Below, in pieces: positions 3,910 through 43,907 of a stretch of DNA of 64,000 nucleotides. Position 1 is the first letter of the stretch, and every line of letters begins with the position of its first letter. Source of the DNA: a candidate division LCP-89 bacterium B3_LCP (GTDB lineage: Bacteria; Electryoneota; B3-LCP). Under the pieces are notes generated by a model, which was not told where the DNA came from, made no database searches, and worked only from the letters and a program-made list of their open reading frames with translations. The position numbers were made by a program, and so were the translations under genes. The DNA is taken from NCBI GenBank assembly GCA_005223185.1, contig NJBN01000001.1:309210-373209 (forward strand), in the 5' to 3' direction.

Positions 3910-5037
3910 GTGATTAATTTGATAGAAACACTGCAGATTATAAGCCTGTCGGTTACTTTGATATTCATGCTATTTCTCTGGCTGGGACTTCGTAGAGAGA
4001 GAATCATATCGTCAAGCTGGCGTCCTACAGTTACTGTATTGGTGGCTGCGCGAAATGAAGAGAGGGATCTTCCCGGTTGTTTGGAAAGTCTAAATAAGCA
4101 GGATTACCCGAAAGATTTATGCGAGTTCATCATTATCGATGATGGATCGACGGACGCGACGGGCGAAATAGCTAAGGAATGGTCTGATAAGGATGCACGG
4201 TTCAGAGTGATTCGGCTTGAAGATGAACAGTCCAGATCGTTAGGTCCCAAGAAGAGAGCGCTTACTAAAGGCTTCGATGCGAGTTCCGGGGATGTTATTA
4301 TCTGCACCGATGCCGATAGTCATTTCGGTCTGGGGTGGTTATCGGGAATGATCGCCTGTTTCGATGAAAAAACCACTGCTGTTTGTGGTATGGTTAAGTT
4401 CGATCCATCCCGCAGTTTCTGGGGGAAATTGGCTGCTTTTGAAGGCTTGGTTGACAGCATATTGAATGCAGCAGTTATCGGCATCGGAGGCGCTCTGAGC
4501 TGTTTCGGAGCAAATTTCGCTTACAGGCGGAAGGTATTTAATGATGCGGGCGGATTTGACGTTGGGTCCGGTTCGCTTTCAGGTGATGACGATCTGCTCC
4601 TGCAGAGGATGCGTTCATCAGGAGGGAAGATTCGTTTCTGTGCCAATTCGCAATCAGTGGTAATGACTCAAAGTCCCCAGGATAGAAGATCATATTGGAA
4701 CCGCAAGCGGAGGCATCTATCTGCAGGGAAAAGATACGCATTTCACTGGATAATGCTGGCACTGGTGGTTTTCATAGCCTGTCTTACCACGGATTTACTG
4801 GCAGTTTTATGGTTTGCTGATTATCACTCGAATCTAAATTTTGCATATATGTGGGGGTTTTTCAGTCTTGCACTGTTCATCATATTTATAAGAGGAAAGA
4901 TGATAATGCTGCAGGAAGGTTACTGGATCTGGTCCTTGACAATATCTTTAGTCTTCCCTCTTTACTTTGTCGTTATTCAGCCACTTACCTTGCTTCCCGC
5001 ACCATCATGGAAAGGGCGTTCATCTAAGCATGAATGA
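3910..5037 (+). CDS. family 2 glycosyltransferase, membrane-bound (N-terminal TM plus C-terminal TM bundle)
   Basis: GT2 signature VTVLVAARNEERDLPGCLESL...FIIIDDGSTD and a DxD-like TDAD. A C-terminal polytopic region follows. GTG start at 3910 precedes the first TM helix. Confidence 0.8.
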   Translation: MINLIETLQIISLSVTLIFMLFLWLGLRRERIISSSWRPTVTVLVAARNEERDLPGCLESLNKQDYPKDLCEFIIIDDGSTDATGEIAKEWSDKDARFRVIRLEDEQSRSLGPKKRALTKGFDASSGDVIICTDADSHFGLGWLSGMIACFDEKTTAVCGMVKFDPSRSFWGKLAAFEGLVDSILNAAVIGIGGALSCFGANFAYRRKVFNDAGGFDVGSGSLSGDDDLLLQRMRSSGGKIRFCANSQSVVMTQSPQDRRSYWNRKRRHLSAGKRYAFHWIMLALVVFIACLTTDLLAVLWFADYHSNLNFAYMWGFFSLALFIIFIRGKMIMLQEGYWIWSLTISLVFPLYFVVIQPLTLLPAPSWKGRSSKHE

Positions 5038-15140: not shown

Positions 15141-15874
15141 TCCTTGCCCTTACCTGAAGCAGCTGCCGGTTGTCGATGCAGATTTTCCTGCACCTCTTTT
15201 TCATCGGACTGCAGTGCGTTGAGCAAACGTTCAGCATCTTCTTTACTCATGGTTTCAGGCTGTGGCTGTTCTTGCTGTTGTGTGTCCTGTTGTTCTTCCG
15301 GGGTCTGTTCCTGTTGTGACTGTTGATCCTGTTGTTGTTCTTGCTGGTCTTGTTGCTGTTGATCCTGCTGATCTTGTTGCTGTTGTTCGTTCTGATCCTG
15401 ATTTTGTTGATCGTTCTGATCCTGTTGCTGTTGTTGCTGGGGAGGTGGATTTTCCAGCATGTGTAAAGCTAATTCCAGGTTGTGCAGGTAATCCCGCTGT
15501 CCGGAATTTAGCTTTAGAGCGGATTTATAGGCTTCCACAGCTTCCTGAATTTGCTGTGACCCGATTAAGGCATTACCTAAATTGTAAAGTGCGTCCGCTC
15601 TGACCAGGTTGTCGGAGCTTATCAGCGAATTCTGGAATGCTTGACCGGCTTCCGGGAACTTCTCCTGCGCGTGGAGGATGTTACCCAATCCGAAACTTAT
15701 TCTGGTGGTATCACCTTCCTGGCTCAAGGCATCCAGGTACTCCACCAGCGCATCGTTGTACTGCCCCTTTTCGTAAAGCTTATCTCCGGCGCGTACTTTG
15801 GATCGCCAGTTAGCCTGGCATAAAGTGGGCAACAGCAATAGAAGAGCTACAATATTTAAGATTTTTCCGTTCAT
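15134..15874 (-). CDS. batC: BatC-like TPR protein with long Gln/Asp-rich low-complexity C-terminal tail
   Basis: Signal peptide, three TPR units, then about 60 aa of Q/D/E repeats (QQQQQDQNDQQNQDQNEQQQQDQQDQQQQDQQEQQQDQQSQQEQ). Confidence 0.7.
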   Translation of the reverse strand: MNGKILNIVALLLLLPTLCQANWRSKVRAGDKLYEKGQYNDALVEYLDALSQEGDTTRISFGLGNILHAQEKFPEAGQAFQNSLISSDNLVRADALYNLGNALIGSQQIQEAVEAYKSALKLNSGQRDYLHNLELALHMLENPPPQQQQQQDQNDQQNQDQNEQQQQDQQDQQQQDQQEQQQDQQSQQEQTPEEQQDTQQQEQPQPETMSKEDAERLLNALQSDEKEVQENLHRQPAAASGKGKDW

Positions 15875-35422: not shown

Positions 35423-37636
35423 CTATTTTATGAGTACAAGCTTCTGTACGGACTTCTGACCACCGCTTTCCAATCTGGCTAAGTAGATACCGGAAGGGAG
35501 ACTTGCAGCGTTGAAGGTAATTTCGTGCGAACCCGCCTGGCGGAAGCCGTCCACTAATGAGGTAACAACTGCACCTCGAATATCGTAGATGGACAGCTTC
35601 ACTTTTGCCTCAGTGGGTAGTGAGTAGGAAATGGTTGTAGTGGGGTTGAAGGGATTGGGGTGGGCAGGATGGAATTCAAATGTTGACGGCGTTAGAATCA
35701 TCGCTTCCAATTCCTCGCTGAAGATGACGTTAGGTGTACCCAGCGGAATCACACCAGCGGCGACAGTCTGTGCCTGATTCAGTGTCTCGGCAATATCTTT
35801 TGCCAGTTCATCATCGACACCCAGTAGGTCCTGGATATAAACTATTGCCTGGGATACTGTTGCGCCATCATCAGAGGCATCCATGTATTGCCCCAGTTTA
35901 TCCGATACCACGTTTAGTAGCAGTGCTAGATATTGCTGACAAGCCCTCTCATACATGCTGCTTCCGCCCTGATTGATGTTAAGTATGTATTCCAGATCGT
36001 CCATAGTCAAAGCAGTGACAGGTGTGCCGACATAGGTGACTCCATCAACTTCGATAGAATTCACCGTGTTCGAGTAGAAGTGATCGAAGATTTCCTGAGA
36101 AAAACCTAACAGTTCATCTTCGGAGTACTGAGGATTTCCTTTGCCCGATTGATTAGCCTTAACCTGATGCTTCCAGAAACCTTTGGAGCGGGCGTCGTTG
36201 GTGGTTACAAGCGGAGTAAGAACGAAATCAACTGTGTCGGTTTCACCGGCATCCAGCTCAACGGGTACATCATTCTGATTCACAGCAAAGCCTAACGGTT
36301 CTACCAATTCGACGATGTAGTCACCGGGATCTATGTCAGGAAAGGAATACTCGCCGTTTTCATCCGTTAAGGTGGATTCGAGGAGTTGACTTCCATCATC
36401 CAAAAGGTCGATGGTAACACCCTGATAGGGTGGGGTGACGGTGCCAGCGATGTGGGCTATTGGCGGTACAGGTCCCTCTATCTTTAACAGCCAAAAATCT
36501 CTTGAACCTGCACCGAAAGAGTAAGAATTACCGAGTACTAGAATATTTCCATCTTCAGCGTGAACCGCAACTCCAGTAGTTTCTTGATTTGGACCGCCGT
36601 AAGTTGTGTCCCATATGGTCGTACCTACCGAGTCTACTTTCATTAACCAATAATCGTAGCTCCCAGCCCCTTTTGAATTTGTATATCCGGTTAACAGATA
36701 ACCACCATCTCCTGAGGCGATAACAGAACGGCAATCGTCCTCTCCCGATCCTTCATAACTTTTCGACCAGATAGAATCACCATTTGCATTGACGCAGAAC
36801 AACCACATATCATAGTTCCCAGTCTTTTGGGTTAGTCCGCCCATAAGGAAATTTCCGTCACCTTTTGGCAAGATAGTATAGAATCCATCCGAACTGGATG
36901 TTCCATAATGCTTCGACCAGAGCGAATCACCTTCTGCATCAACTTTTAGCAAATACCCGCGATCCGGCGAAGATCCGAAAGGATCAGAAAATCCCGCTAA
37001 TAAAAATCCGCCGTCGCCTGCGGGAATAATGGAGGATGCAGCATCAGTAGCTGTAAGACCATAGGTTTTCGACCATAGGGTGTTACCCAGGGAGTCCACT
37101 TTCACGAGCCATATATCTTCATCTCCTGCACCGAAGGATTTAGTGTTTCCCGTAAGCAGGAAACCACCATCACCGGAAGAGACCATCGCGTTCAAATTAT
37201 CATCTGCCGATCCGCCGTAGGTGTGAGACCAAACAGTGTGACCTGTGGCATCAATCTTCAAAACATACCAATCATATCCTCCAGCACCGTAAGACTTGGT
37301 ACGACCACCTAAAAGGTAGTTCCCATCTCCAGCGGAAATAATGGAAGTCGCATATTCGTTACCACTACCACCATATGTAGAATCCCAGACTTGATTACCA
37401 AAATTGTCCACCATGATAAGCCACATATCCCCATCGCCTACTCCGAACGAGTGTGTTCCTCCGGCCAAGAGGAAATTGCCATCGCTTGTTTGGATAATAT
37501 CCGTTGCTACTTCTGAGTTACTACCCCCATATGTCTGGGTCCACAACACTTCTGGCGCTTGCGCAAAAGCAACCGCTCCAGTTAGCACTACCAGTACAAC
37601 CACTACTACAAAACCTTTAACATGACTGTTCTTCAT
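35423..37636 (-). CDS. secreted repeat protein (about 9 tandem ~45-aa beta-propeller-like repeats) with T9SS C-terminal sorting domain
   Basis: Repeats of GGS..D.A.S(I/V)....DGG(Y/F)LL.G.T.S(F/Y)GAG..D.WL.K.D..G...W..TYG. The C-terminal ~90 aa are near-identical to the CTD of the upstream gene. Start chosen at the internal Met before the signal peptide (MKNSHVKGFVVVVVLVVLTGAVAFAQA). Confidence 0.7.
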   Translation of the reverse strand: MKNSHVKGFVVVVVLVVLTGAVAFAQAPEVLWTQTYGGSNSEVATDIIQTSDGNFLLAGGTHSFGVGDGDMWLIMVDNFGNQVWDSTYGGSGNEYATSIISAGDGNYLLGGRTKSYGAGGYDWYVLKIDATGHTVWSHTYGGSADDNLNAMVSSGDGGFLLTGNTKSFGAGDEDIWLVKVDSLGNTLWSKTYGLTATDAASSIIPAGDGGFLLAGFSDPFGSSPDRGYLLKVDAEGDSLWSKHYGTSSSDGFYTILPKGDGNFLMGGLTQKTGNYDMWLFCVNANGDSIWSKSYEGSGEDDCRSVIASGDGGYLLTGYTNSKGAGSYDYWLMKVDSVGTTIWDTTYGGPNQETTGVAVHAEDGNILVLGNSYSFGAGSRDFWLLKIEGPVPPIAHIAGTVTPPYQGVTIDLLDDGSQLLESTLTDENGEYSFPDIDPGDYIVELVEPLGFAVNQNDVPVELDAGETDTVDFVLTPLVTTNDARSKGFWKHQVKANQSGKGNPQYSEDELLGFSQEIFDHFYSNTVNSIEVDGVTYVGTPVTALTMDDLEYILNINQGGSSMYERACQQYLALLLNVVSDKLGQYMDASDDGATVSQAIVYIQDLLGVDDELAKDIAETLNQAQTVAAGVIPLGTPNVIFSEELEAMILTPSTFEFHPAHPNPFNPTTTISYSLPTEAKVKLSIYDIRGAVVTSLVDGFRQAGSHEITFNAASLPSGIYLARLESGGQKSVQKLVLIK

Positions 37637-37789
37637 TTTTCTCTCCTTGTTAATTTGATATTTTTCCTTTTCGATCTTGCATATCGATGTGATTTGTATT
37701 ATAATAACCACGACCTGAATTTCAAAATGATAAATTGTACCTTAATGGGCAATTGATAGGCATTTCAGACACAATCCCGTATCTCCAGC

Positions 37790-39681: not shown

Positions 39682-39710
39682 TTGACATTACCAATCCATT
39701 ATGTTATTTT
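39682..39710 (+). promoter_or_regulatory. sigma70-like promoter (TTGACA-17nt-TATTTT) for tRNA-Ala
   Basis: TTGACA at 39682-39687, a 17-nt spacer, TATTTT at 39705-39710. The tRNA 5' end lies about 24 nt downstream. Confidence 0.4.
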
Positions 39711-39733: not shown

Positions 39734-39806
39734 GGGGCTGTAGCTCAGCTGGGAGAGCGATACGTTCGCAACGTATAGGTCGGCGGTTCGATCCCGCTCA
39801 GCTCCA
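39734..39806 (+). tRNA. tRNA-Ala (anticodon CGC)
   Basis: Cloverleaf folds by hand. Acceptor ggggctg/cagctcc includes the G3:U70 Ala identity pair. D-arm gctc-agctggg-agagc. Anticodon stem atacg/cgtat with loop ttCGCaa. T-arm ggcgg-ttcgatc-ccgct. Discriminator A. CCA is not encoded. Confidence 0.9.
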
Positions 39807-39812
39807 CATTTT

Positions 39813-39839
39813 AAATTATGAATTATGAATTATGAATTG
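39813..39839. repeat. (AATTATG)n tandem heptamer, copy 1 of a 27-nt direct repeat flanking the SRP RNA
   Basis: aaattatgaattatgaattatgaattg is identical to the copy at 40141-40167. Confidence 0.8.
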
Positions 39840-39867
39840 CAGGTTCGGTTTTTATCCTTTATTTTAT

Positions 39868-40136
39868 GCTGTGCTAGGCGGGGAGTTAGCGGTGCCCTGT
39901 AGCCCGAAATCCGCTCATGCGGGGCCGAATACCCACGATTGAGGTCTTTTTGCTTCCGGACCCTGTAAGGCACGTGATGTAGAAGGTCAAGTCCCGCGCA
40001 ATGGGATGTCGCCCAACCCCGTCAGGCCCGGAAGGGAGCAGCGGTAAGTGATAATTGCATGTGCCGCGGGGCAGCTTGGCTGGAATCGGCGACCTTCAGG
40101 TGAAACGATAGCGAAAGTTCGAAGGTGGGGCACAGC
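39868..40136 (+). ncRNA. ffs: signal recognition particle RNA, long form with Alu domain (Bacillus scRNA-like)
   Basis: Domain IV motif GUCAGGCCCGGAAGGGAGCAGC at about 40022-40043. The 5' Alu-domain consensus GUGCUAGGCGGGGAG.UAGCGGUGCCCUGUA...GGGCCGAAU is present. The 5' gcugug pairs with the 3' cacagc. Length about 269 nt. It sits immediately upstream of dnaX-ybaB-recR as in Bacillus. Confidence 0.8.
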
Positions 40137-40140
40137 TTTG

Positions 40141-40167
40141 AAATTATGAATTATGAATTATGAATTG
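40141..40167. repeat. (AATTATG)n tandem heptamer, copy 2 of the 27-nt direct repeat
   Basis: Identical to 39813-39839. Confidence 0.8.
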
Positions 40168-40207
40168 TCTGGTTTAAGCCCTAGGTCATAGTCCTTAAGG
40201 TGAATTA

Positions 40208-41830
40208 GTGTCGTTTTTAGTTACAGCCAGGAAATGGCGTCCTCAGAAGTTCGAGGAAGTGGTGGGTCAGGATGGAGTATCCAGAACCCTGCAGAACGCC
40301 ATCAAAGCGGGCAGGATAGCACATTCCTATATCTTCGCCGGACCGCGGGGTATCGGTAAAACTACCACTGCCCGGCTGTTGGCTAAAGCTATAAACTGCT
40401 CTAAAGGACCCACCCCCGATCCTTGTGGCCAATGCGTTCCCTGCAAGGAAATCCCTGATGGCCGGTGTATGGACGTTCTGGAGATAGACGGGGCTTCCAA
40501 CCGCGGTGTTGGTGAAATCAGAAACCTGCGGGACAACATTCATTTCAATCCCGCATCCTGCAGGAAGAAGATATACATCATCGATGAAGTTCACATGCTC
40601 ACTATCGAGGCTTTCAATGCACTTCTGAAAACACTGGAAGAGCCCCCTGCGCACGCCCTGTTCATCTTTGCCACAACCGAAATTAACCGGGTTCCGGCGA
40701 CCATTTTATCGAGATGCCAACGCTTCGATTTCCGGCGGCTGGCTACCGCGGAGATAAGTGGTCATCTGAGACATATTGCAGACCAGGAGGGACTAAAGGC
40801 GACTGATGAAGCGATAGGTCTGATCGCTCGCCGGGCAGACGGTGCCATGAGGGATGCACAGAGTTTGTTAGATCAAATGGCGACATTTTCCCCGGAAGGG
40901 ATCACTGCTGAAGAGGTGCGCACAGCATTGGGGATCGTACCGGAGGAGCTTTACTTTAAGGTGTCGGACTTAGTAAAAGATAATCGTACTCAGGACGTTT
41001 TCACCATAGTTGAGGACTTCGATACACGCGGCTTAAGCCCCGGTGAGTTGCTGCGGGGGCTATGTGATCATTTCCTGAATTTGATGAAGGCTGCAGAACC
41101 CAGCGGCGTCGAATACATTGAAGCGCCGGATGAAGTCAGGAATCAGTATCGGCAGGAAGCGCCCAAGTTCAAGCAAAATGACCTGCTGCGTATCCTGGCA
41201 ATCTTGCAGGAGGCTTTCAGTGAAATCCGCAGGCATCCTCAACCGCGCCTGAAGCTGGAATTGACCCTGCTGCGGCTGGCGTCCCTGGAACGAACCGCCA
41301 GTATTGAGGAACTTATCGATTCGCTTCAAGGGAATAAGCCGCCCCAGCCACCTGGCGGAGGTGATGAACCCAAAGTTACCACGCCGGATAAAAGCAGATC
41401 GTCAACTCCACCGGAACCGCCTCCTGAACCTGTCAGTACGCGAATCAAGGAACCGCCCACTACTGAAACGCTGCCTCTGGATATGGCTGTTATCAAGTCA
41501 CGCTGGTCAAGCGTGGTTGAACGTATCTGTGCTGGGAATGTTCCTTTGGTGAGTCAGTTGAAATTAGGGATGCCCCGAAAGTTGGAAGATGATATCCTGA
41601 CGGTAGGTTTCGGGCTGGATTTTCACGATATGCAGATAGAGAGGCTACAGAAGGTTGCTGCTTCAGGGAACCTTGACGATGGCATAAAGCAGGTTTTTGC
41701 AAGTCCGCTTAGGATTCGATTTGAACGGCTGTCAAAAGCGGAGATGGAAGAAGTAGCGAAGTCAGTTGAAGATGAGGATCCTCTGGAGACTGAATTAATT
41801 CGTTGTTTGGGTGCGAAACGCATTGCCTGA
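40208..41830 (+). CDS. dnaX: DNA polymerase III subunit gamma/tau
   Basis: Walker A GPRGIGKTT, Zn-module CGQCVPC, DEVHML and a SRC sensor. GTG start with RBS aaggtga. Confidence 0.9.
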   Translation: MSFLVTARKWRPQKFEEVVGQDGVSRTLQNAIKAGRIAHSYIFAGPRGIGKTTTARLLAKAINCSKGPTPDPCGQCVPCKEIPDGRCMDVLEIDGASNRGVGEIRNLRDNIHFNPASCRKKIYIIDEVHMLTIEAFNALLKTLEEPPAHALFIFATTEINRVPATILSRCQRFDFRRLATAEISGHLRHIADQEGLKATDEAIGLIARRADGAMRDAQSLLDQMATFSPEGITAEEVRTALGIVPEELYFKVSDLVKDNRTQDVFTIVEDFDTRGLSPGELLRGLCDHFLNLMKAAEPSGVEYIEAPDEVRNQYRQEAPKFKQNDLLRILAILQEAFSEIRRHPQPRLKLELTLLRLASLERTASIEELIDSLQGNKPPQPPGGGDEPKVTTPDKSRSSTPPEPPPEPVSTRIKEPPTTETLPLDMAVIKSRWSSVVERICAGNVPLVSQLKLGMPRKLEDDILTVGFGLDFHDMQIERLQKVAASGNLDDGIKQVFASPLRIRFERLSKAEMEEVAKSVEDEDPLETELIRCLGAKRIA

Positions 41831-41859: not shown

Positions 41860-42198
41860 ATGAAGCGATCCGGTATGGGAGGACTGCTTAAGCAGGCGCA
41901 GAAGCTTCAGGAAGACATGGCTAAAGCGCAGGCTGAATTGGAAACCATCGAAGTTGAAGGAAGCGCCGGTGGAGGCGTAGTAACGGTGCGGGCGTCCGGG
42001 AAACAGGAAATACTGGAGATCAAGATCGATCGGGACGTCATCGATCCTGAAGACTCCGAAATGCTTGAGGACCTAATCGTCGCTGCCGTCAACCAGGCGC
42101 TGCAGAACGCTAAAGCGGCTGGTGAAGAGAAGATGTCATCGGTAACTTCCGGTTTGATGGGTGGGCTACCACCGGGATTGAAACTGCCGGGTATGTAG
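41860..42198 (+). CDS. ybaB: YbaB/EbfC nucleoid-associated protein
   Basis: 112 aa. MGGLLKQAQKLQEDMAKAQAELE...VEGSAGGGVVTV is the canonical YbaB sequence, in the conserved position between dnaX and recR. Confidence 0.85.
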   Translation: MKRSGMGGLLKQAQKLQEDMAKAQAELETIEVEGSAGGGVVTVRASGKQEILEIKIDRDVIDPEDSEMLEDLIVAAVNQALQNAKAAGEEKMSSVTSGLMGGLPPGLKLPGM

Positions 42199-42212: not shown

Positions 42213-42812
42213 ATGTCTTCTATACCAACATCACTTCAGAACTTGATCGATGAATTCGCTAAGCTTCCGGGAGTGGGGAAAAAGTCCGCCGGGCGCATGG
42301 CAATTTACGTGCTGAAGAATTCTTCTGATAAAGCGCGGCAGTTAGCCGATGCTCTGGTAGCTCTGAAGGAAAAAGTGGTTATCTGCCGCACCTGTTATAA
42401 CATAGCTGAAGGCGAACAGTGTCCTATCTGTTCCGATCCCAAACGGGATCGGGTGACAATCTGCGTGGTGGAACAGGCTTCTGACATACTGCCGGTAGAG
42501 AAATCCGGGGCGTACTTCGGTCTCTATCACGTGCTGGGTGGAGTTCTCTCGCCCTTGGATCATCAGAACGAAGAGCAACTCCATATTGGCAGCCTGATCA
42601 AACGGATCGAACGGGATGGAACGAAGGAAGTAATTGTCGCCACTAATCCCACCACTGAGGGTGAAACTACGGCGATGCTGTTAGCTCAGCGGTTGCAGCA
42701 TCTGGACGTGAAGGTTACCAGGATCGCACGGGGTCTGCCGGTGGGATCGGAATTGGAATTTGCGGATGAGGCGACGCTGACGCGGGCACTGCAAGGGAGA
42801 GGAGAGCTTTAG
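42213..42812 (+). CDS. recR: recombination protein RecR
   Basis: HhH motif LIDEFAKLPGVGKKSAGRMA, C4 zinc finger CRTCYNIAEGEQCPIC and a Toprim domain. Confidence 0.9.
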   Translation: MSSIPTSLQNLIDEFAKLPGVGKKSAGRMAIYVLKNSSDKARQLADALVALKEKVVICRTCYNIAEGEQCPICSDPKRDRVTICVVEQASDILPVEKSGAYFGLYHVLGGVLSPLDHQNEEQLHIGSLIKRIERDGTKEVIVATNPTTEGETTAMLLAQRLQHLDVKVTRIARGLPVGSELEFADEATLTRALQGRGEL

Positions 42813-42821
42813 CGCGGTGCT

Positions 42822-42862
42822 CATTGCAGATTGCAGAATGCAAATTGGAAATTTTAAATATA
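42822..42862. repeat. about 40-nt repeat (copy A), candidate promoter/regulatory element upstream of the rhodanese gene
   Basis: cattgcagattgcagaatgcaaattggaaattttaaat is about 85% identical to 43888-43928. Confidence 0.6.
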
Positions 42863-42875
42863 ATGGAAATGAGCC

Positions 42876-43907
42876 ATGACTACAGGGAATAAGATATACT
42901 TCTCATTGATTATTATTTTCAGTATCCTGATAGTTGGCTGCGGGAAGAGTAAACAGGAGACGGCCCAGCAGGTACAGGAGAAAGATTTCTACACTGAAAT
43001 CGCTCAGTTGGGCAGCGAGTATTTCAGTTCCAAGACGAAGAACATTCTAGCAAAAGACCTTTGGGCGGAAATTCAAGCGGGGGATAGTCCCTTCATCATC
43101 GATATGCGCAAACCAGGTCTTTTCGATTCTTTGGGGCATATTGATGGCGCCGTCAACTGGACCAAGAATCAGGTGATGGATAACTTGGATCGCATCCCTA
43201 AAGATGCCAAAGTGGTCTGCGTCTGCAAAGCTGGTTTAATGAGTTCGCAATTGACTTCCATCTTGAGGTTGTTGGGATACGATGCCTATAGCCTCAAATG
43301 GGGCATGTGCGGTTGGACTTCGAATCATACTATGAATTTAGGTGTATGGGGTAACCAGAAGCCGGGAAATCAGACGCTGGAAACTACACCAGTATCTACG
43401 AATGATGTATATAATCCGCCTCAAGCTATGTGCGAAGCTGTGGGTGTCAGAGAGGCGATAATTAAGCTGACCGATGCCTATTTCGAATCGGCTGATGAGC
43501 ATTTGAACGTCATTAAAGCGGAAGAGTTATACGCTTTGCTGGAAGATGATGATGCGGATAACGACCCCTTCGTGGTCAGCTATCAGCCGGAGGCTAATTA
43601 CAGCGCGGGGCATATTCCGGGTGGGCATCTGTTTCCGTTCGGTACATTCGGACCGGAACGGTTGAGACAGCTTCCCACCGACCGTCTTATCGTGGTGCAC
43701 TGTTACAGCGGGCAGACTACCGGGCAGTTGGCTTCCTACTTAAGCATTTTGGGTTACCAGGTTCGCAACCTGAAATTCGGCATTAACGCCATTACCGATG
43801 ACCCGGCGATTTTGAAGCACTGGAAGAAAGACAAACTCTGTAAGTATAAAGCGCCGAAGAAAGATTTGCCGGTGGTGGCGCTACACGCATTGCAGCTTAC
43901 AGATTGA
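42876..43907 (+). CDS. tandem-rhodanese-domain lipoprotein (sulfurtransferase-like)
   Basis: Lipobox ILIVGCG. Two rhodanese modules with active-site-like Cys loops (VVCVCKAGLMSSQ, VVHCYSGQTTGQ). Confidence 0.65.
   Translation: MTTGNKIYFSLIIIFSILIVGCGKSKQETAQQVQEKDFYTEIAQLGSEYFSSKTKNILAKDLWAEIQAGDSPFIIDMRKPGLFDSLGHIDGAVNWTKNQVMDNLDRIPKDAKVVCVCKAGLMSSQLTSILRLLGYDAYSLKWGMCGWTSNHTMNLGVWGNQKPGNQTLETTPVSTNDVYNPPQAMCEAVGVREAIIKLTDAYFESADEHLNVIKAEELYALLEDDDADNDPFVVSYQPEANYSAGHIPGGHLFPFGTFGPERLRQLPTDRLIVVHCYSGQTTGQLASYLSILGYQVRNLKFGINAITDDPAILKHWKKDKLCKYKAPKKDLPVVALHALQLTD

Follow-up and report, generated by a model that had tools for sequence, protein, structure and literature searches.

The locus described here belongs to B3_LCP, a bacterium of the candidate division LCP-89. 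The whole stretch of DNA that was analysed (64,000 nt) is called the window, and positions are numbered within it. The features of the locus are sorted by position; all are on the + strand.

39682–39710, +: sigma-70-like promoter, TTGACA-17-TATTTT (10 of 12 matches in a promoter scan), 23 nt upstream of the tRNA gene
39734–39807, +: tRNA-Ala(CGC) gene, no CCA encoded (Rfam tRNA model, 64.2 bits; ARAGORN)
39809–39839, +: repeat copy 1, TTTTA + (AATTATG)x3 + AATTG, the first half of the tRNA-to-SRP spacer (spacer 1)
39840–39868, +: native remainder of spacer 1 (29 nt), forming the SRP RNA 5′ leader
39869–40135, +: long-form (Alu-domain) SRP RNA gene (RF01854, full model)
40137–40167, +: repeat copy 2, TTTGA + (AATTATG)x3 + AATTG, opening the SRP-to-dnaX spacer (spacer 2)
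40168–40207, +: dnaX leader, with a Shine-Dalgarno-like AAGGTGA at 40197–40203 (read from the sequence)
40208–41830, +: dnaX (Pfam)
41860–42198, +: ybaB (Pfam)
42213–42812, +: recR (Pfam)
42822–42847, +: third, degenerate heptamer array, ATTGCAG ATTGCAG AATGCAA ATTGGAA (TRF, period 7, 3.6 copies, 83% matches; lag-7 scan)

In the window the tRNA-to-SRP spacer measures 61 nt and the SRP-to-dnaX spacer 72 nt. The third array follows the stop codon of recR (42812) and precedes a rhodanese gene, whose ATG is at 42876. The GTG start of dnaX at 40208 is backed by the N-terminus (M/V)SFLVTA, which is conserved in relatives. The order dnaX-ybaB-recR downstream of the SRP RNA, already read by a first-pass annotation of this DNA, is borne out by Pfam. 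The same annotation had described the genome as T9SS-bearing and FCB-like, which agrees with the presence of a 762-aa Por_Secre_tail protein (T9SS C-terminal sorting) encoded at 35423–37711 on the – strand.

The SRP RNA is of the long form. The model RF01854 (Bacteria_large_SRP; gathering score, 60 bits) matches 39869–40135 (+) with 165.9 bits (E 4.8e-27) over model positions 1–256 of 256, and the small-SRP model is the lower-scoring clan member at this locus. In a covariation analysis of 11 sequences, 86 consensus pairs were predicted and compensatory changes were found in 34 of them; the helices of the Alu domain are supported by covariation and the helix 8 (domain IV) motif GUCAGGCCCGGAAGGGAGCAGC is conserved. 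The full-length match and the compensated pairs uphold the earlier proposal of an RNA of ~270 nt with an Alu domain, and the large model, when set against the small one, is indeed the better. The RNA resembles RF01854 in this full-length match and in the conserved motifs of the Alu domain and helix 8; it differs in the terminal helix, whose outermost G-C pair is U-U in B3_LCP (GG...CC extension in relatives, TG...CT in the window). The broken pair coincides exactly with the start of the repeat. LCP-89 is a further phylum-level host of Bacteria_large_SRP, with nothing structurally different, and the SRP RNA of a poorly known candidate phylum is here identified and delimited.

DnaX of the window and the B3_LCP protein are 100% identical. 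Eight LCP-89 relatives, the next in line, were compared (L121, L122, L123, L125 and L127–L130; DnaX 61–70% identical). The series tRNA-Ala(CGC), large SRP RNA (150–182 bits), dnaX-ybaB-recR is found in all eight, and a promoter at the same position upstream of the tRNA, TTGAC(A/T)-17-TAT(T/C)TT, is kept in seven. The tRNA-to-SRP spacer ranges from 17 to 102 nt among these genomes; where it is shortest (17 nt in L130, 20 nt in L127), a second promoter would not fit into it. From the SRP RNA to the called start of dnaX, seven relatives have 24–94 nt and L130 has 222 nt. One transcript is the simplest reading, since the shortest tRNA-to-SRP spacers are too short for a promoter of their own and the upstream promoter is conserved. 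The promoter at 39682–39710 is likely the single promoter of the tRNA-Ala/SRP RNA transcript, and gene spacing suggests that dnaX is probably on the same transcript. Promoter, tRNA-Ala(CGC), long-form SRP RNA and dnaX-ybaB-recR would form one conserved transcription unit, from which the SRP RNA would most likely be released out of a tRNA-linked precursor. In such a precursor the 5′ end of the tRNA would be cut by RNase P and its CCA-less 3′ end by an RNase Z-type enzyme; no CCA being encoded, these two activities would free the SRP leader. Leader and trailer of the SRP RNA would then be trimmed to the terminal helix. Beyond recR, most relatives have a pyruvate:ferredoxin oxidoreductase (POR) operon, directly or past one or two inserted genes; with a rhodanese gene at this place, the junction is rearranged in B3_LCP.

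The type of SRP RNA was surveyed by an Rfam scan of 40 further dnaX loci; the DnaX metagenome matches (35–56% identity among the matches listed) were reused for this survey of SRP RNA and tRNA genes. Of these loci, 26 have an SRP RNA match, which in nearly every case stands directly upstream of dnaX. It is of the large form in seven loci, including KSB1 (L212, 178 bits) and Gemmatimonadota (L213, 206 bits), and of the small form in 19, including Calditrichaeota (L211). The gene immediately before it is tRNA-Ala(CGC) in L211, L212, L213 and the metagenome locus L131, the two genes being separated by a few to about 40 nt; tRNA-Ser occupies this place in many of the other surveyed loci. With the large form at the same position in KSB1 and Gemmatimonadota, a long SRP RNA loses the special interest that the annotation had attached to it in an FCB-like genome. 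The linkage in several phyla shows the arrangement to be old and widespread, LCP-89 being one more phylum that keeps the Alu domain; tRNA-Ala(CGC), SRP RNA, dnaX, ybaB and recR are an old conserved unit of several FCB-group phyla, with long and short SRP forms. Nothing on a tRNA-ffs-dnaX linkage was found in the literature searched.

In KSB1 (L212:1822–3001) the genes are, in order, a tadA-like deaminase gene, two tRNA-Ser genes, tRNA-Ala(CGC), large SRP RNA, dnaX-ybaB-recR and the POR operon. In this locus and in Gemmatimonadota (L213:1443–3001), tRNA-Ala(CGC) abuts the SRP RNA, with a gap of a few nt only. The KSB1 order is very close to that of Bacillus subtilis, tadA-scr-dnaX-yaaK-recR. 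B3_LCP shares with B. subtilis scr an Alu-domain, long-form SRP RNA of ~270 nt followed by dnaX, a gene of the ybaB family and recR. The B. subtilis RNA is also trimmed from a longer precursor (PMC1935012), as would be the case here. The two differ in that B. subtilis scr has its own 354-nt precursor, with an RNase III stem of paired flanks and a terminator (PMC1935012), whereas the flanks are unpaired in nine of nine LCP-89 genomes, a tRNA-Ala gene lies 17–102 nt upstream, and no terminator-like hairpin stands behind the SRP RNA in the window. An RNase III stem of the B. subtilis type was considered for the repeats and rejected: they are direct, not inverted, and pairing between leader and trailer is no better than in shuffles in any of the nine genomes. 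Such pairing extends the terminal helix by 1–2 base pairs only.

The two copies form a direct repeat of 31 nt (39809–39839, TTTTAAATTATGAATTATGAATTATGAATTG; 40137–40167, TTTGAAATTATGAATTATGAATTATGAATTG). They are identical at 30 of 31 positions, including the whole of the last 27 nt, and each contains (AATTATG)x3.6. The 21-mer core has two sites in the whole 64 kb window (0.01 matches expected per shuffle), and these two are also its only perfect arrays of period ≥5 with ≥3 units (0 expected from shuffles). The pair reported by the first-pass annotation is therefore real; its position relative to the mature SRP RNA has to be redrawn. Copy 2 does begin 1 nt past the 3′ end of the SRP RNA and is its 3′ trailer, but the SRP RNA is not closely bracketed: copy 1 ends 29 nt before its 5′ end. 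Copy 1 begins 2–3 nt past tRNA-Ala(CGC), a gene that the annotation did not mention, and is the 3′ trailer of that tRNA. Both arrays have the same unit number. The centroid fold predicted for the whole 505-nt precursor leaves the repeats unpaired; this fold is not more stable than those of shuffles (z = +1.6) and is otherwise uninformative. In RNA they would act as an A/U-rich unpaired linker, discarded in maturation. Together with the third array, three heptamer arrays occupy three spacers of one operon, and the 64 kb are otherwise microsatellite-free. Three arrays in one operon and the equal unit number are unexpected for independent neutral events, which leaves room for selection or for very recent copying.

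The sequence (AATTATG)n is absent from both spacers in all eight LCP-89 relatives and from the 93 dnaX-centred loci fetched (L121–L213). The repeats are thus not a conserved cis-element of the ffs locus. They are heptanucleotide simple sequence repeats: 3.6 perfect units are found twice, in spacers, and are missing from the relatives. Other heptamers are found at corresponding places. In the LCP-89 relative L128, the tRNA-to-SRP spacer contains (TCGTCAT)x4 with one variant unit (L128:3610–3640), which indicates that this spacer gains heptamer arrays independently in different lineages. Two unrelated genomes have an SRP-to-dnaX spacer filled with such arrays. In L189, it carries (CGATTTA)x3.1 and then (AATCACG)x4, ending 7 nt before the ATG of dnaX (L189:95–161). 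In L206, inverted (GGCAGTS)n and (CACTGCC)x3.7 follow a small SRP RNA, and (AGGGGTC)x4.7 and (TCATCAA)x4.3 stand right after dnaX (L206:2840–2940 and 4140–4262).

An exact search for (AATTATG)x3, with one genome per species, gave at least 120 loci, against ~0.3 chance matches expected (an estimate for uniform base composition). By their titles, the matches listed come from Bacteroidota (about 73), Cyanobacteria (about 16), Lentisphaerae (6), Firmicutes (6), Chloroflexi (4) and Treponema (3), with single matches in Ignavibacterium, Calditrichia, Chitinispirillaceae and others; no LCP-89 genome is among them. Of the arrays in these listed matches, 143 of 144 lie outside long open reading frames, one of 144 has a tRNA gene within 300 nt, and the unit number varies from 3 to 8. 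Perfect arrays of period 4–12 in those loci, again among the matches listed, have period 7 in 220 of 244 cases, 74 of the 220 being of other heptamers. The annotation had staked its case on a heptamer that would not recur at many unrelated loci; this holds within the 64 kb window, with its two sites, but not in other genomes, where the array is repeated at 120 or more unrelated intergenic loci of other phyla. Such recurrence in distant phyla bears on the little-studied commonness of bacterial 7-nt repeats.

Some of these arrays have a context of their own. In Lentisphaerae (L023:7020–7330, L024, L075, L008, L084), several loci share a composite unit, which is also arranged in tandem: a (CGCCCCT)-like array, 'aacg', (AATTATG)n, 'aRatgcgcctc' and (AGCATTC)n. 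The whole resembles a structured repeat element made of three different heptamers. In Ruminococcus MAGs (L012, L100, L102), (AATTATG)n follows a conserved hairpin and '...catgccaa(c/t)', in tandem about 126 nt apart, apparently as one component of a repeated unit of larger size. In Bacteroidota, the arrays often end 6–20 nt from a TAnnTTTG -7 box, in either orientation (examples: L002, L003, L015, L031, L052, L078, L081, L083, L098, L103), which suggests that they often occupy the -33/upstream region of promoters.

In most prokaryotic genomes, no class of long microsatellites is as abundant as heptanucleotide repeats, and this has been put down to polymerase slippage (PMC4679880, PMC4692102). 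Certain heptamers, TAACTGA and GGGAATC among them, turn up repeatedly in Cyanobacteria, Bacteroidetes and a few further groups; they have no known function (PMC4679880, PMC4692102). A search for the motif AATTATGAATTATG in the searchable papers found no mention of it. The B3_LCP repeats resemble the long heptanucleotide repeats of Mrazek et al. (2007; summarised in PMC4679880 and PMC4692102) in their perfect 7-nt units, their intergenic position, their phylogenetic scatter, their absence at the orthologous sites of relatives and the frequent presence of several arrays per region; they differ in that the B3_LCP region is not generally rich in such repeats. TAACTGA, of Beggiatoaceae, Cyanobacteria and Bacteroidetes (MacGregor 2015, PMC4679880), and GGGAATC/GGGGAYT, of Xanthomonas and Nostoc (Rehm et al. 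2015, PMC4692102), are likewise single heptamers that recur in short intergenic arrays of distant phyla, Cyanobacteria and Bacteroidota above all. Both are different motifs and are sited directly upstream of start codons, whereas B3_LCP has two copies only, in transcribed spacers beside stable RNA genes.

The similarity between the two spacers ends at 31 nt: the flanks before and after are no more alike than shuffles. A duplication of the whole spacer or of a promoter is ruled out by this limit. Once its array is collapsed to one unit, spacer 2 aligns from its first base to the corresponding spacer of the closest relative, L121 (window, CTTTGAAATTA[TGAATTATGAATTA]TGAATTGTCT; L121, CCTTTAAACT----TGAATCGTCT). 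The alignment score is 30.5, against 18.6 ± 3.4 for shuffles, 0.33% of which reach it. This homology of the collapsed spacer makes array 2 look like the in-place expansion of a proto-repeat. In spacer 1, a motif common to several relatives after the tRNA, CCAC(C/G)GATC(T/G)G, has been lost and the repeat stands in its place. The single differing base is T in copy 1, G in copy 2 and A in L121; with three different bases, this position favours neither order of the copies. Shared sequence, shared unit number and a few shared flanking bases argue for copying rather than for two independent expansions. Both the tRNA gene and the SRP RNA gene end in CACA.

Read in this way, the repeats would have no part in the release of the RNAs; they would belong to the heptanucleotide microsatellites, of all prokaryotic repeat classes the one most prone to slippage, and would have arisen only in the B3_LCP lineage. 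Slippage may have lengthened copy 2 where it stands, starting from an ancestral trailer similar to CTTTAAAYTTGAATYGTC, and a 31-nt piece of the SRP trailer may then have been copied behind the tRNA, possibly (and speculatively) by template switching on the shared CACA. Copy 1 is probably the secondary copy; the order, copy 2 first and copy 1 second, is a working hypothesis drawn from one relative, L121. That the repeats result from slippage and one local copying event, without a dedicated function, is considered the probable explanation, if by no means a secure one. Among the three origins suggested by the first-pass annotation (processing sites, promoter- or terminator-associated elements, footprints of a duplication event), the last fits best, copy 2 being alignable to the trailer of L121 and copy 1 looking secondary. 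The SRP RNA locus is normal and conserved, and the repeats are copies of a common heptanucleotide microsatellite gained in one lineage, most likely through a chance event of recent date. Striking identical repeats around a stable RNA can thus be a lineage-specific microsatellite event and not a signal.

Other explanations give the repeats a role. The (AAUUAUG)n sequence could have a function as a 3′ trailer module: unstructured and A/U-rich, it would be where a single-strand-specific endonuclease of RNase E, Y or J type enters or cuts, and its position behind both stable RNAs would serve to separate tRNA, SRP RNA and dnaX mRNA. Both copies, predicted to be unpaired, start 1–3 nt past the 3′ end of a mature RNA, their equal unit number is compatible with selection, and there is a precedent in B. 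subtilis, where it is largely RNase J1, cutting in the trailer, that frees the scRNA from the sequence behind it (PMC1935012). Such a module is nevertheless judged unlikely: the eight relatives have the same RNA genes without any such sequence, which also tells against the processing-endonuclease sites of the annotation, their two trailers are unlike each other, and 143 of 144 arrays in other genomes (among the matches listed) have no stable RNA gene nearby. Alternatively, the arrays could be sites for a sequence-specific nucleic-acid-binding protein that co-regulates the spacers of the operon, as was proposed for TAACTGA in Beggiatoaceae (PMC4679880). Three arrays in three spacers of one operon, in otherwise repeat-free surroundings, and the recurrence of an identical heptamer in many phyla are in line with that proposal; no candidate binding protein is known, however, the third array has a different motif, equivalent spacers elsewhere carry unrelated motifs and the arrays are absent in relatives, so that this explanation is held to be very unlikely. 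A wider claim would be that selection acted when the SRP trailer, array included, was copied to its place behind the tRNA, and that (AATTATG)n is a cross-phylum functional cis-element, not a slippage product. It is regarded as quite improbable. If true, tRNA and SRP RNA would share a trailer module, and one nuclease or binding protein would set the output of tRNA, SRP RNA and dnaX mRNA; (AATTATG)n would then recur as a cis-element in Bacteroidota, Cyanobacteria, Lentisphaerae and others, comparable to the TAACTGA proposal.

The repeat could also be a portable piece of promoter, its A/T-rich part resembling an UP element and its terminal TTG serving as a -35 box. The resulting internal promoters would be TTGCAG-17-TATTTT for the SRP RNA, its -10-like hexamer ending 4 nt short of the RNA's 5′ end, and TTGTCT-16-CATAGT for dnaX, where the distance from hexamer to gene start is 16 nt. 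The geometry fits; moreover, a TAnnTTTG -7 box is found within 35 nt of 17 of 144 arrays (among the matches listed), against 2.8% of random windows. Their hexamers, however, match weakly, at 7 of 12 positions in spacer 1 (below the scan threshold) and 8 of 12 in spacer 2, against 10 of 12 for the tRNA promoter here and 9–10 of 12 for those of relatives. The A/T-rich repeats give promoter-like matches on the wrong strand too, and relatives with spacers of 17–44 nt have no internal promoter. Internal promoters of this kind are highly improbable, and the weak matches, with the absence of the repeats from all eight relatives, leave the promoter- or terminator-associated elements of the annotation unsupported. 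Direct repeats beside a tRNA gene are a classic signature of integrated elements, and the two copies could be read as a target-site duplication or a pair of att sites next to such a gene. An integrated element is scarcely credible here: the 297 nt between the repeats comprise the SRP RNA and its leader only, all relatives, and other phyla as well, have their SRP RNA at this very place, homology links copy 2 to the native trailer, and Pfam finds no integrase, transposase or other recombinase gene nearby; the conserved gene order by itself largely refutes this possibility. An assembly artefact is equally hard to credit. The sequence does come from a metagenome-assembled genome, and assemblers can be misled by short repeats, but the copies differ at one base, their unique flanks differ on both sides, the intervening SRP RNA is intact and of full length, and the contig is 635,960 bp long.

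Tandem repeats of another kind are found elsewhere in the window. At 15288–15453, overlapping repeats of period 24, 45 and 48 are TGY-rich (CTGTTGCTGTTGTTC...); on one strand, they may code for a protein segment of low complexity.
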